Of a stretch of 64,000 nucleotides of DNA, positions 5,287-55,217 are shown piece by piece. Position 1 is the first letter of the stretch; the number at the start of each line of letters is the position of its first letter. Position numbers and translations under genes: made by a program. The stretch lies in the sequence record MH359124. The stretch is one strand, 5' to 3'. Below the pieces are notes generated by a model that searched no databases, had not been told where the DNA came from, and saw only the letters and a program-made list of their open reading frames with translations. Origin of the DNA: Escherichia phage SF.

Positions 5287-5316
5287 GTGTACACTACCTG
5301 AGGGCATGATATTATA
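5287..5316 (+). promoter_or_regulatory. early-type promoter
   Basis: GTGTAC, 17 bp spacer, TGATATTAT, followed by the conserved TAGACCTATCA cassette. Confidence 0.45.
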
Positions 5317-20776: not shown

Positions 20777-22102
20777 ATGCAATTGAATTCTCGTAATCTA
20801 AAAAGTATTATTGATAACGAAGCCTTAGCATATGCGATGTACACCGTTGAAAACCGTGCAATCCCAAACATGATTGATGGATTTAAGCCGGTTCAACGTT
20901 TTGTGGTTCATCGTGCGTTAGATTTGGCTCGTGGTAATAAAGAAAAATTTCATAAACTTGCGTCAATTGCAGGCGGTGTTGCAGATTTAGGTTATCACCA
21001 TGGTGAATCTTCTGCACAAGATGCAGGTGCATTGATGGCTAACACATGGAACAACAACTATCCACTGTTAGATGGCCAAGGCAACTTTGGTTCTCGAACA
21101 GTCCAAAAAGCTGCAGCATCTCGTTATATTTTTGCTCGTGTAAGTAAAAATTTCTATAACGTATATAAAGATACTGAATATGCTCCAGCTCATGAAGATA
21201 AAGAACACATTCCACCAAAATTCTATCTTCCTATTATTCCAACAGTTCTTTTGAATGGCGTCTCTGGTATTGCAACCGGTTACGCAACAAATATTCTGCC
21301 TCATAGTTTTAAATCAGTCAAAAAGGCTGTATTACAAGCTCTTCAAGGTAAAAATGTCACTAAGCCAAAAGTTGAATTCCCGGAATTCCGTGGTGAAGTA
21401 CATGAAGTTGATGGGCGTTATGAGATTCACGGAACATATAAGTTCACATCCCGAACTCAAATGCAGATAACTGAAATCCCATATAAATTCGACCGTGAAA
21501 CGTATGTGAGTAAGGTTCTTGACCCATTGGAAGACAAAGGTCTAATCTCATGGGAAGATGATTGTGGTGAACACGGCTTTGGGTTTAAGGTGAAGTTCCG
21601 TAAAGAGTACTCGCTTCCTGATGATGAAGAGCTACGTCATGAAAAAATCATGAAAGATTTTAGTCTCATCGAACGTCGTTCGCAAAACATCACAGTGATT
21701 AATGAAAAGGGTAAATTAGCGGTCTATGATAACGTAGTGGACTTAATCAAAGATTTTGTTGAAGTCCGTAAGACTTATGTTCAGAAACGTATTGACAACA
21801 AAATCCTTGAATCTGAAAAAGCATTTAAACTGGCTTTTGCTAAGGCACACTTCATCAAAAAAGTTATTACAGGTGAAATTGTGATTCAGGGCAAGACTCG
21901 TAAAGCTTTGACTGAAGAGCTAGCACAAATCGAAATGTATAAAGAACATGTCGATAAACTGGTAGGCCTTAACATCTTCCATATCACTTCCGACGAAGCA
22001 CGTAAACTAGCAGAAGAAGCTAAGGCTAAGAAAGAAGAAAATGAGTATTGGAAGTCTACTGATGTTGTGACAGAGTACACTAAAGACTTGGAGGCACTTT
22101 GA
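20777..22102 (+). CDS. 52: DNA topoisomerase II medium subunit gp52
   Basis: 441 aa; GyrA/ParC-like N-terminus (AYAMYTVENRAIPNMIDGFKPVQR), same size as T4 gp52. Confidence 0.92.
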   Translation: MQLNSRNLKSIIDNEALAYAMYTVENRAIPNMIDGFKPVQRFVVHRALDLARGNKEKFHKLASIAGGVADLGYHHGESSAQDAGALMANTWNNNYPLLDGQGNFGSRTVQKAAASRYIFARVSKNFYNVYKDTEYAPAHEDKEHIPPKFYLPIIPTVLLNGVSGIATGYATNILPHSFKSVKKAVLQALQGKNVTKPKVEFPEFRGEVHEVDGRYEIHGTYKFTSRTQMQITEIPYKFDRETYVSKVLDPLEDKGLISWEDDCGEHGFGFKVKFRKEYSLPDDEELRHEKIMKDFSLIERRSQNITVINEKGKLAVYDNVVDLIKDFVEVRKTYVQKRIDNKILESEKAFKLAFAKAHFIKKVITGEIVIQGKTRKALTEELAQIEMYKEHVDKLVGLNIFHITSDEARKLAEEAKAKKEENEYWKSTDVVTEYTKDLEAL

Positions 22103-22178
22103 GTGCCCTAGCCTTAGGATTTCTCGGTGCAATAGCTGCACTAGTGATTTGGCTGTATTGGTTGGACAAACATGATTA

Positions 22179-22199
22179 GGGAGCTTCGGCTCCCTTTTG
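22179..22199 (+). terminator. rho-independent terminator after gene 52
   Basis: gggagc-ttcg-gctccc followed by T4. Confidence 0.55.
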
Positions 22200-22221
22200 T
22201 GCATTTTTTTCTCACAAAACA

Positions 22222-22250
22222 GTTTACTTTTGCTTCAAACATGATATTAT
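22222..22250 (+). promoter_or_regulatory. early promoter, copy A of a duplicated cassette of about 75 bp
   Basis: GTTTAC, 17 bp, TATTAT; cassette AGTTTACTTTTGCTTCAAAC.TGATATTATAGACCTATCAAAACAAA...TTGGAGAAATAAAATGTCTAAA. Confidence 0.5.
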
Positions 22251-22289
22251 AGACCTATCAAAACAAAACAACCAAATTGGAGAAATAAA

Positions 22290-22505
22290 ATGTCTAAAAT
22301 GAAATTAACCCAAAACACAACTACTCGTTTCGGTAAAGTTAAACCTGGTATGAATGCTCCCCGTAAAGCACTTGTTGAAGAATTAAATTTCTTAGAAGTT
22401 GAAATCAATTCTTTAGTGGTTCGCGGTTCAAATGGACATCATTTAGAAAAGCTTCGTTCTAAAAAGGCAAAACTTATTGGCCTTATTAAAGAAATGAGTT
22501 TGTAA
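22290..22505 (+). CDS. hypothetical protein
   Basis: 71 aa, basic; begins MSK like the following motA. Confidence 0.5.
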   Translation: MSKMKLTQNTTTRFGKVKPGMNAPRKALVEELNFLEVEINSLVVRGSNGHHLEKLRSKKAKLIGLIKEMSL

Positions 22506-22543
22506 ATTTTACCAGGGCTTTTGGAAAAAGAGCCCAAAATAAA

Positions 22544-22572
22544 GTTTACTTTTGCTTCAAACGTGATATTAT
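22544..22572 (+). promoter_or_regulatory. early promoter, copy B of the duplicated cassette
   Basis: About 90 percent identical to the cassette at 22222; precedes motA. Confidence 0.5.
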
Positions 22573-22609
22573 AGACCTATCAAAACAAATACTAATTTGG
22601 AGAAATAAA

Positions 22610-23242
22610 ATGTCTAAAGTTACTTACATCATCAAAGCTTCTGAAAACGCTCTGAATGAAAAAACTGCTGCAATAATGGTTTATGTCATTAAGAACAACT
22701 TCACCACGGCTGCCAATGTCCGTGAAGCTCTGGAAGCGGAATACAATGCATCGGTTGTTAACTCTAACATTGGTGTATTGATTAAGAAAGGTTTAGTCGA
22801 AAAATCCGGTGATGGACTTGTAGCAACAGGCGAAGCAATGGATATTATCCAAAAAGCTGCAGACCTCTTTGCCCAAGAAAATGCTCCAGAACTTCTTCAG
22901 AAACGTAACACTAGAAAAGCACGTGGAGTTACTCCTGAAATGCACGAATTAGCGAACTTTGTTTTTGAAAATATTAAAGATAAAGTTGAAGTTAAAGAAA
23001 TTGGTGAAAACCGTAGTAACTTGGAAGTTCGATTTGCAAAACGAGTTCTAGGTATTCGTCAGATCGAAATTCGTCGAAATGGTTCTCTTAGAATCTTTGC
23101 ATACAACATGTCAGAAACTGAATCAAAGCTGTTTACTTCTCTTGAAAATGATGTTAAGATTAAGATCGGTGGTAAATATACATACATTGACTTCCCTAAT
23201 GTGTCCAAAGAAATCATTACCCTTGTAACTAACGTACTGTGA
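22610..23242 (+). CDS. motA: middle-mode transcription activator MotA
   Basis: 210 aa; MSKVTYIIKAS, NSNIGVLIKKGLVEKSGDGL, QENAPELL match recalled T4 MotA. Confidence 0.85.
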   Translation: MSKVTYIIKASENALNEKTAAIMVYVIKNNFTTAANVREALEAEYNASVVNSNIGVLIKKGLVEKSGDGLVATGEAMDIIQKAADLFAQENAPELLQKRNTRKARGVTPEMHELANFVFENIKDKVEVKEIGENRSNLEVRFAKRVLGIRQIEIRRNGSLRIFAYNMSETESKLFTSLENDVKIKIGGKYTYIDFPNVSKEIITLVTNVL

Positions 23243-54282: not shown

Positions 54283-54304
54283 GGAGACTTCGGTCTCCCT
54301 TTTG
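54283..54304 (+). terminator. rho-independent terminator
   Basis: gggagac-ttcg-gtctccc + TTTT, identical to the hairpin at 39182. Confidence 0.55.
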
Positions 54305-54335
54305 TGTGTTTAGGGCAGAAAAAGTTTAAAAAGAT

Positions 54336-54365
54336 GTTTACTCTCCTATAGGATGTGTTACTATA
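54336..54365 (+). promoter_or_regulatory. early promoter
   Basis: GTTTAC, then GTTACTATAGAC cassette. Confidence 0.45.
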
Positions 54366-54405
54366 GACTTGTACCACCTAATCAATAAAACAACCGGAGA
54401 ATAAA

Positions 54406-54777
54406 ATGAACACTATCAATTTAAATGCTACAGTTAAATGCCATGACCATGATGGATATAAATCTCAAGTTGTTAACGAGTTACAGTGGATGGTTCGTTC
54501 AGTTCAAGGTGATGTAGTTTATTGTACAACTCCTGATGGCCCTTCAGACGATTTTTGTTATCATATCGAAATCGAAAACTTTTTCACTGGTGAAATTTAC
54601 CGTCTGAATTCTACAGTTTATGGTTGTATTCGTTCTAAAACTTACGAAGACGAAGAGACTGGTTACTCTGAAGATGTTGTATGGTACGAAAATGCCAGAA
54701 ATCGCGCAGAGGCATTAATCGAGAAGATTAAAGCAAAAGGTGTTATTGATTCAGCTAAGTGGACAAAAATCAAATAA
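54406..54777 (+). CDS. hypothetical protein
   Basis: 123 aa, Cys/His-containing. Confidence 0.5.
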   Translation: MNTINLNATVKCHDHDGYKSQVVNELQWMVRSVQGDVVYCTTPDGPSDDFCYHIEIENFFTGEIYRLNSTVYGCIRSKTYEDEETGYSEDVVWYENARNRAEALIEKIKAKGVIDSAKWTKIK

Positions 54778-54781
54778 AAAT

Positions 54782-54821
54782 GTTTACTTTGGTACAGGTT
54801 TTGTTATTATAGACCTGTACC
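54782..54821 (+). promoter_or_regulatory. early promoter with 9-bp stem (GGTACAGGT/ACCTGTACC)
   Basis: GTTTAC at 54782; inverted repeat around TTGTTATTATAG. Confidence 0.5.
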
Positions 54822-54851
54822 AACAAACAACTTAAACATCTGGAGAATAAA

Positions 54852-55217
54852 ATGAACTACATCAACTTTGAACGCAAATATGTTTCTAACGGTATCGCCG
54901 GTTCTATTGATACGATTTGCTTATGGAAACATAAAAATGGTTCAGTATGTGAAATTGAGCAGTATATGACTCCTAATTACGTTTATATGCGATTTGAAAA
55001 TGGCATCACGGTTTCAATCACAATGGACGGTTCCAACTTCAAAATTGCATTAGATGACGATTTCCGTCAACGTGATTTAGGTACTCATCCTTGCTGGAAT
55101 GGTGATAATCGTAAACTTCTGGTTAAAACTTGGATTCGTCATATCCTGAGTAACCGAGCTAAACCTGAACATCTCGAAGCAATCTTTGATGTAGTTCTTA
55201 ACGAATTCGATATCTAA
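54852..55217 (+). CDS. hypothetical protein
   Basis: 121 aa. Confidence 0.5.
   Translation: MNYINFERKYVSNGIAGSIDTICLWKHKNGSVCEIEQYMTPNYVYMRFENGITVSITMDGSNFKIALDDDFRQRDLGTHPCWNGDNRKLLVKTWIRHILSNRAKPEHLEAIFDVVLNEFDI

Follow-up and report, generated by a model that had tools for sequence, protein, structure and literature searches.

Between two conserved genes of Escherichia phage SF, a promoter and its leader occur twice, almost letter for letter, once before a small gene and once before a key regulator. What is such a duplicated cassette, and does it record how small early genes come and go in T4-type phages? We analyzed a 64,000-nucleotide (nt) stretch of this phage (sequence record MH359124; hereafter, the window), in which the order is gene 52, a tiny hydrophobic open reading frame (ORF), a hairpin with a run of Ts, a first cassette (P1), a 71-amino-acid ORF (gene A), a second hairpin, a second cassette (P2), and motA. 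We refer to the interval between gene 52 and motA as the gp52/motA slot. Our analysis indicates that the repeats are likely T4-type early promoter/leader cassettes of the type known as PeSL (promoter-early stem-loop), acting as sites of crossover and gene conversion.

The repeat pair is real and non-random. A global alignment of the two copies gives 77 identities over 86 positions (89.5%), with exact common blocks of 20 nt (from 22221 and 22543), 26 nt (22242 and 22564) and 22 nt (22277 and 22597). A repeat search recovers the pair as two segments, 22213-22267 versus 22535-22589 (55 nt, 93%) and 22262-22298 versus 22582-22618 (37 nt, 84%), which are offset by a 2-nt indel and are spaced 322 and 320 bp apart. 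The initial annotation had placed the copies at 22221-22300 and 22543-22620, about 90% identical and about 320 bp apart, and had named an identity below 70% as the result that would speak against a duplication; the alignment bears out both estimates, and the coordinates lie within a few bases of the measured boundaries. It had also described both downstream genes as starting with MSK, one of them being motA. Both ORFs do begin in this way (Table 1), and the second product matches the Pfam families MotA_activ (E = 5e-39) and MotCF (E = 5e-9), in agreement with the annotations of relatives.

The similarity of P1 and P2 also stands out within the window. The 34-nt core GTTTACTTTTGCTTCAAACRTGATATTATAGACC occurs exactly twice when up to three mismatches are allowed, and has no match in 100 dinucleotide-preserving shuffles. 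When 24 early-promoter-like sites were aligned locally, all against all, P1 and P2 formed the most similar of the 276 pairs, with a score of 67 against a mean of 17.3 (standard deviation 7.5) and a runner-up of 54. Their 16-nt spacers are identical at 15 of 16 positions, and this spacer varies among the other promoters of the window. The extra matched places that BLAST reports per record are probably cross-matches between P1 and P2, not additional copies.

Judged by its identity to relatives, the window genome is that of a Mosigvirus, an RB69-like T4-type phage: a 701-nt region is 98-99% identical to Mosigvirus APCEc01, JS09, HX01 and ATK47. A comparison with related phages for presence or absence of gene A, as the initial annotation had proposed, found the slot empty, or filled by gene A, by an unrelated gene B, or by another ORF. 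The gene A locus is covered over at least 80% of the nucleotide query in 74 records, and a tblastn search with the protein returned 92 (74 at 95% identity or more, one at 88%, and 17 at 60-80%). Three members of the distant group (dhabil, JS98 and VR5) proved on checking to be Dhakavirus and to have gene A at this same place. The slot is empty, with a single cassette directly before motA, in T4, RB69, O157 typing phage 3 (O157tp3), mar005P1, 348Ecol098PP, p000v and AV109; apart from T4, these are the cases that match the earlier suggestion that the repeats permit deletion of the intervening gene. A census estimate for Mosigvirus, based on a spread listing and a diagnostic 106-nt query, gives about 14 RB69-type empty records, about 70 other empty records and about 74 with gene A, so that roughly half of the Mosigvirus records lack the gene.

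Gene B, a 75-amino-acid ORF (phrog_10955), fills the slot in Dhakavirus IME281 and in ES19, a confirmed Tequatrovirus. A swap of the gene between the repeats had likewise been predicted, and IME281 does carry gene B where dhabil, JS98 and VR5 carry gene A. A tblastn search for gene B returned 168 records, and for 138 of these the amino-acid identity is 95% or more; in MLP2 it lies, by coordinates, immediately upstream of the motA promoter. In Klebsiella phage Marfa, a different 30-amino-acid hydrophobic ORF stands directly before the motA promoter. The promoter and leader of Marfa motA (positions 901-967 of locus L017) are 91% identical to window positions 22543-22609, whereas identity is 68.5% for the motA coding sequences and 65% for the terminal 380 nt of gene 52. 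Such a likeness between the Marfavirus and Mosigvirus cassettes would indicate either very strong constraint or recent horizontal spread. We also observed a relative of gene B in Karamvirus RZH at another locus, between two promoters of a local type with their own common +1 block.

The breakpoints of replacements and indels between relatives fall inside the cassettes. Counted from the motA ATG, the segment between about -380 and -100 is unrelated in IME281 and dhabil, and the flanks of these two are 95-100% identical. The reverse holds for IME281 and ES19, which are 95-100% identical from -385 to about -10 and only 55-80% identical in the flanks. Compared with T4, ES19 carries an insertion of about 345 bp between flanks that are 95-100% identical. 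Its P1 consists of the core of the T4 motA promoter up to CTATCAA, followed by the gene B leader, and its motA now stands behind a Dhakavirus-type promoter. As a consequence of this arrangement, we take the exchanged unit to be leader, ORF, hairpin and promoter, with its junctions in the -10/+1 block and in the block spanning the Shine-Dalgarno (SD) sequence and ATG. The hairpin before the imported motA promoter of ES19 (L008, 1132-1168) is itself chimeric, with a P2-type left arm and upstream sequence of the Dhakavirus P1 type on the right, and is weak (-6.8 kcal/mol, versus -12 to -15 in intact versions). A separate mosaic was seen in 348Ecol098PP (L005, 780-945). Because this phage resembles Dhakavirus in the 3' end of gene 52, in the small ORF and in the terminator, and is of the Mosigvirus type in its cassette and motA, the mosaic boundary is placed at the junction of terminator and cassette.

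Sequence differences among cassettes were followed with four markers, where U stands for the upstream stretch, S for the 4 nt that follow the -35, R for an A or a G within the spacer, and L for the leader. In the window, P1, the presumed promoter of gene A, reads U1, TTTT, A, L1, and P2, the presumed promoter of motA, reads U2, TTTT, G, L2. The P1 copies before gene A are U1, ACGT, G, L1 in ATK47 and ECCR664, and U1, ATGT, A, L1 in BEU50, PECP20 and G53. Before motA, the P2 copies of EP02SG and NHEP11 are U2, TTTT, A, L1, i.e., they have a P1 leader within P2. The single cassettes, which also precede motA, are U1, ATAT, A, L2 in RB69; U1, S1-type, A, L1-type in O157tp3, 348Ecol098PP, AV109 and p000v; and U1, TTTT, A, L1-type in mar005P1. 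Among cassettes before motA, all four combinations of S (S1 or TTTT) and L (L1 or L2) occur, the two markers being about 45 nt apart. The RB69 cassette is chimeric, with the left part of P1 and the leader of P2, and is what one would expect if a crossover took place in the central 26-nt block. A P1-type leader is present at the remaining empty sites that we examined.

The two copies within a genome can share variants that are private to it. NHEP11 has the -10 TAGTAT in both copies, VR5 has TTAT in both, and Mosigvirus and Dhakavirus each have three lineage-specific bases present in both. Identity between P1 and P2 ranges from 85% to 94% across the Mosigvirus genomes examined, and the window lies in the upper part of this range because its P1 has the P2-type TTTT. 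Together, the marker recombinants and the private variants common to both copies argue for repeated crossover and gene conversion between them.

The phylogeny of the flanking sequences points in the same direction. To the left as well as to the right of the slot, genomes that have it empty are interspersed with genomes that have it occupied: in the left flank, mar005P1 (empty) is 0.3% from ATK47 (gene A), and in the right flank, 348Ecol098PP (empty) is 0.2% from EP02SG (gene A), while the left flank of 348Ecol098PP is 19-20% divergent from other Mosigvirus genomes. Given this interleaving, the state of the slot has changed or reassorted many times. The public genomes show natural products of such exchange: gene A has been lost or gained, and at least two different crossover points were used; the unrelated gene B has taken its place; the gene B module has passed between genera together with the promoter downstream of it; and the two copies have been homogenized within single genomes.

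The anatomy of the two cassettes (Table 1) fits the sigma-70 early promoter pattern of the T4/PST type, with TTTACT, 16 nt, TATTAT, and a TG one base before the -10; the spacer becomes 17 nt if the -35 is read as GTTTAC. An AT-rich stretch precedes the -35, CACAAAACA in P1, where it follows the T-rich run, and CAAAATAAA in P2. RNA folding predicts unstructured leaders for both copies.

Table 1. Features of the gp52/motA slot of Escherichia phage SF, with positions in the window
Feature	Position	Strand	Description
Gene 52 (topoisomerase II medium subunit)	20777-22102	+	441-amino-acid ORF; left conserved flank of the slot
26-codon hydrophobic ORF (putative)	22099-22179	+	TTG start overlapping the gene 52 stop (TTGA)
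Stem-loop 1	22178-22195	+	GGGAGC-UUCG-GCUCCC, then T-rich run to about 22211
Cassette copy 1 (P1)	22213-22298	+	A-rich upstream stretch at 22213-22221
P1 -35	22223-22228	+	TTTACT; alternatively GTTTAC at 22222-22227
P1 extended -10	22242-22243; 22245-22250	+	TG; TATTAT
P1 3' end	22279-22282; 22290-22298	+	Leader, then GGAG; ATG TCT AAA
Gene A	22290-22505	+	71-amino-acid ORFan cargo, starts MSKMK; putatively driven by P1
Stem-loop 2	22515-22535	+	GGGCUUUU-GGAAA-AAGAGCCC; stem-loop part of cassette 2
Cassette copy 2 (P2)	22535-22618	+	A-rich upstream stretch at 22535-22543
P2 -35	22545-22550	+	TTTACT
P2 extended -10	22564-22565; 22567-22572	+	TG; TATTAT
P2 3' end	22599-22602; 22610-22618	+	Leader, then GGAG; ATG TCT AAA
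motA (activator of middle transcription)	22610-23242	+	210 amino acids, starts MSKVT; right conserved flank; putatively driven by P2

Each cassette is preceded by a stem-loop. Stem-loop 1 (-12.9 kcal/mol, z = -3.0) consists of GGGAGCUUCGGCUCCC followed by UUUUGUGCAUUUUUUU, a GC-rich hairpin with a U-run as in intrinsic terminators, and carries a rho-independent terminator annotation in ATK47; it is, by these features, the predicted terminator of the gene 52 unit and at the same time the stem-loop part of cassette 1. Stem-loop 2 is of similar predicted stability (-12.2 kcal/mol, z = -2.7) and is followed by AAAAUAAAG, which has no U-run; a terminator scan did not pick it up, and we rejected it as an intrinsic terminator on either strand, neither of which has a T-run after the hairpin. 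In Dhakavirus, this hairpin takes the forms GAGCUCUU-GGAA/GAAA-AAGAGCUC, in which the stem is kept through a double change from A-U to G-C. The gene A and gene B modules end in the same hairpin, which makes it a part of the cassette rather than of the cargo. An Rfam scan of 21900-22800 (E up to 1) returned a single match, an 18-nt chance similarity of hairpin 1 to CrcZ (13.6 bits versus a gathering score of 95), and we therefore assign no known RNA family to the locus.

A heptamer resembling the MotA box, TGCTTCA, lies in the spacer of both cassettes (22231-22237 and 22553-22559, + strand); Dhakavirus has TGCTTTA instead, as does a promoter of Karamvirus RZH. Middle promoters have a MotA box (TGCTTYA core) near -30, 11-13 bp upstream of a TAnnnT -10. 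In P1 and P2 the heptamer is only 7 bp from the -10, and it occurs 57 times in the window; on these grounds we rejected the two as MotA-dependent middle promoters. With 57 occurrences in the window, the spacer heptamer may be there by chance, and a role in autoregulation by MotA would be pure speculation.

How would such an arrangement work and spread? In the explanation that we favor, P1, standing after the gene 52 terminator, would drive gene A, and P2, standing after the second hairpin, would drive motA, both firing immediately after infection. An insert that carried its own hairpin would cut motA off from the resident promoter, so that viable insertions would be those that bring a replacement promoter, which would make leader, ORF, hairpin and promoter the transferable unit. 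The exact blocks of 20, 26 and 22 nt would then serve crossover and gene conversion in a phage with very active homologous recombination, whether by way of excised mini-circles or by unequal crossing-over. The GGAG leaders may be cut by RegB, as happens in T4, where MotA is made early and RegB cleaves the motA mRNA within its SD sequence, GGAG (Hinton 2010, PMC2988021). The RegB/S1 consensus is GGAGRAYARAA, 11 nt in single-stranded form, with a T4 optimum of GGAGAAUAAAA (Durand et al. 2006, PMC1702504). Both leaders read GGAGAAAUAAA, which is the optimum plus one A and deviates from the consensus at positions 7 and 8. Because of this match at nine of the 11 positions, RegB control of gene A and motA is plausible but unproven.

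Several observations weigh against this explanation. The similarity downstream of the -10 is in part due to TATAGACCTATCAA, a motif that is not specific to the pair, since several further early promoters have it, such as those at 5288 and 10516. The leaders fall short of the full RegB/S1 consensus. Because the U-run of a canonical intrinsic terminator is missing from hairpin 2, P2 is unproven as regards the terminator half of the PeSL definition. For the phage of the window, we infer promoter, termination and recombination activity from sequence alone. Finally, each event may have been a gain or a loss, and some empty sites could be ancestral and not deletions.

Could the likeness of P1 and P2 have arisen by convergence only, with strong T4-type early promoters and ribosome sites reaching one consensus without common ancestry or exchange? 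Several early promoters of the window do have TTTAC and TAYTAT, some with AGACCTATCAA-like +1 regions and GGAGAAUAAAAUG-like ribosome sites. However, the spacer, which is unconstrained in other window promoters, is nearly invariant between P1 and P2; their alignment score is an extreme outlier; and neither the private variants held in both copies of NHEP11 and VR5 nor the recombinant marker combinations and chimeric single cassettes are what convergence would produce. We consider it largely refuted and hardly credible. Common ancestry without exchange is the next possibility: an ancient tandem duplication of the motA promoter might have captured gene A and then been inherited vertically, with the repeats inactive. 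Mosigvirus and Dhakavirus share the position of gene A, and the two versions of its protein are about 75% identical, which fits its presence in a common ancestor. Such a static history is very unlikely, though, given that presence and absence of gene A are interleaved with the flank phylogeny, that there are at least two kinds of empty-site junction, that gene B replaces gene A in Dhakavirus between flanks of 95-100% identity and its module is near-identical across genera, and that homogenization is specific to the genome, with cassette identities from 85% to 94%.

A different kind of alternative concerns the cause of the identity and not its history. Selection for co-regulation might be the main reason for the identical leader, SD sequence and start in Mosigvirus, with recombinogenicity as a by-product, if gene A needs the burst and shut-off of MotA and owes them to an equal promoter strength, an identical ribosome site and the same RegB-sensitive GGAG. 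The Mosigvirus repeat does span the SD sequence and three codons, with gene A starting MSK where its Dhakavirus counterpart starts MNK; T4 motA mRNA is a good RegB substrate that is cut in GGAG; and RegB sites, like both leaders here by prediction, are unstructured. Against this stand the Dhakavirus gene A, which works with a different leader and start, the free exchange of L1 and L2 leaders between the gene A and motA positions, and the incomplete match to the RegB consensus. Moreover, since about half of the Mosigvirus records lack gene A, tight coupling of gene A to MotA is dispensable. We judge co-regulation unlikely to be the main cause.

Our reading of the cassettes as crossover and gene-conversion sites can be carried further than we would ourselves go with confidence. 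The P2-type cassette, instead of being just a passive repeat, might form the mobile end of a gene-cassette system that needs no integrase, passes from one T4-type genus to another and overwrites the native promoter of motA, an essential regulator, with units of leader, ORF, hairpin and promoter traveling, possibly as encapsidated mini-circles. This is suggested by the motA promoter of ES19, which is of the Dhakavirus type and arrived with gene B, by the roughly 138 records with gene B at 95% identity or more, and by the contrast in Mosigvirus and Marfa between a 91% identical cassette and flanking genes of only 65-69% identity. We consider this extension doubtful.

The genes on either side of the slot are conserved, and gene 52 is annotated as DNA topoisomerase II in ATK47, RB69 and T4. 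The putative 26-codon ORF that follows it, with the translation (L)SALALGFLGAIAALVIWLYWLDKHD*, is unannotated in ATK47 and RB69; it lies where T4 has motA.1 and where dhabil and 348Ecol098PP have ORFs with an ATG start. Gene A belongs to PHROG 6200 (phrog_6200, function unknown; E = 4e-40) and had no match in a search of curated Pfam. Its homologues were found only in records at the Mosigvirus level of identity and in the distant group at 60-80%, whose checked members are Dhakavirus. A word-indexed protein search gave eight close relatives, and an exhaustive HMMER profile search of 1.84 billion representatives gave five hits and no credible distant relative, the distant hits being multi-stretch matches in long proteins. 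A scan of IMG/VR added no independent gene A loci, as it returned only JS98 and VR5. The AlphaFold2 model of the gene A product (predicted local distance difference test score 76) has a disordered basic N-terminus and a helical hairpin of helices 23-44 and 50-70, for which a comparison with the PDB found generic or designed helical hairpins only (E > 0.6) and no significant fold match.

P1 and P2 are part of a larger family of early promoters. About two dozen sites in the window share one layout, an A-rich stretch, T(T/G)TAC(A/T), 16-17 nt, TAnnAT, often AGnCCTATCAA, then an SD sequence and ATG, and part of the similarity between P1 and P2 is therefore family-wide. A second tandem cassette pair lies at 54290-54876 (+ strand), with copies 446 bp apart and -35 elements at 54337 and 54783. 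Between the -35 and a point shortly after the ATG, the copies are about 80% identical, which ranks them second in similarity among the pairs of the window (the runner-up above). They flank a 123-amino-acid ORF (54406-54777) and stand in front of a 121-amino-acid ORF (54852-55217). Although both products begin MN.IN, they are unrelated proteins (BLASTP E = 13). In addition, many early promoters of the window (+ strand; e.g., 19144, 19653, 19914, 48660, 50784 and 54783) have an inverted repeat that brackets the -10, as in AGGACT..TACAGT..AGTCCT, GAGAGC..TATAAT..GCTCTC and GGTACAGGT..TATTAT..ACCTGTACC. These correspond to the PeSL subclass with a stem-loop overlapping the -10 (Arbiol et al. 2010, PMC2839356); P1 and P2 have no such repeat and carry upstream hairpins instead.

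The gp52/motA slot is an unusually well-resolved natural record of the gain, loss and exchange of small early genes in T4-type phages. One short interval between two conserved genes shows at least four cargo states, crossovers that can be mapped to blocks of 20-26 nt, and visible conversion between copies, and the promoter of the key regulator motA can be replaced together with the cargo. For the engineering of Mosigvirus and Tequatrovirus phages, the slot offers a tolerated insertion site with a promoter and leader in place. Gene A and gene B are flagged as dispensable accessory early genes whose host-specific roles can be tested.

The closest known system is the PeSL itself. Arbiol et al. 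(2010, PMC2839356) defined these elements in RB49 and phi1, with promoter and terminator assays and a mini-circle model, and Comeau et al. (2014, PMC4122927) described them in PST/T4 and nt-1/KVP40, with a T4/PST consensus of TTTACW..TAYWAT and a stem-loop just upstream. A PeSL combines a stem-loop, an AT-rich stretch, a sigma-70 early promoter, an SD sequence and a start codon, conserved over about 100 bp; copies flank ORFans, close relatives have a single chimeric copy, and excision and integration of mini-circles have been proposed (PMC2839356, PMC4122927). The SF cassettes share the composite layout, the intergenic position and the repetition over about 100 bp, as well as the two copies flanking an ORFan, the single chimeric copy in relatives, and the match to TTTACW..TAYWAT with an upstream stem-loop. 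They differ from the published PeSLs in that one of the flanked genes is motA, a conserved regulator, and not an ORFan in a hyperplastic region; in that the Mosigvirus repeat runs three codons into both genes; in a hexamer spacing of 16 instead of 17 nt; in the missing U-run of hairpin 2; and in being known from sequence alone. Neither PeSL paper mentions motA, RB69-like phages, or the gp52/motA slot in Mosigvirus, Dhakavirus or Tequatrovirus, and our literature search found no paper linking PeSLs with Mosigvirus or RB69. The suggestion in the initial annotation that mobile regulatory cassettes are at work here fits our results and amounts to the published PeSL model. Because that mechanism is already in the literature, what is new is the locus and the lineage, a well-resolved case and not a new mechanism.

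Two further systems invite comparison. The T4 motA promoter, like that of the window, follows the terminator of the gene 52/motA.1 unit, in a similar upstream context (TTTTTTCACAAAACGGTTTAC in T4, TTTTCTCACAAAACAGTTTAC in the window), and T4 motA likewise has a GGAG SD sequence followed by an A-rich stretch and ATG TCT AAA. However, the T4 spacer, -10/+1 region and leader have no sequence relationship to their counterparts in the window, and T4 has one copy where the window has two; RegB cleavage is documented in T4 only. By analogy only, the slot also resembles the cassette arrays of integrons, in which small promoter-associated slots gain, lose and exchange single-ORF cargo through conserved flanking sequence. 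Unlike integrons, it has no integrase and no attC or attI site; exchange presumably proceeds by general homologous recombination, and each cassette brings its own promoter.

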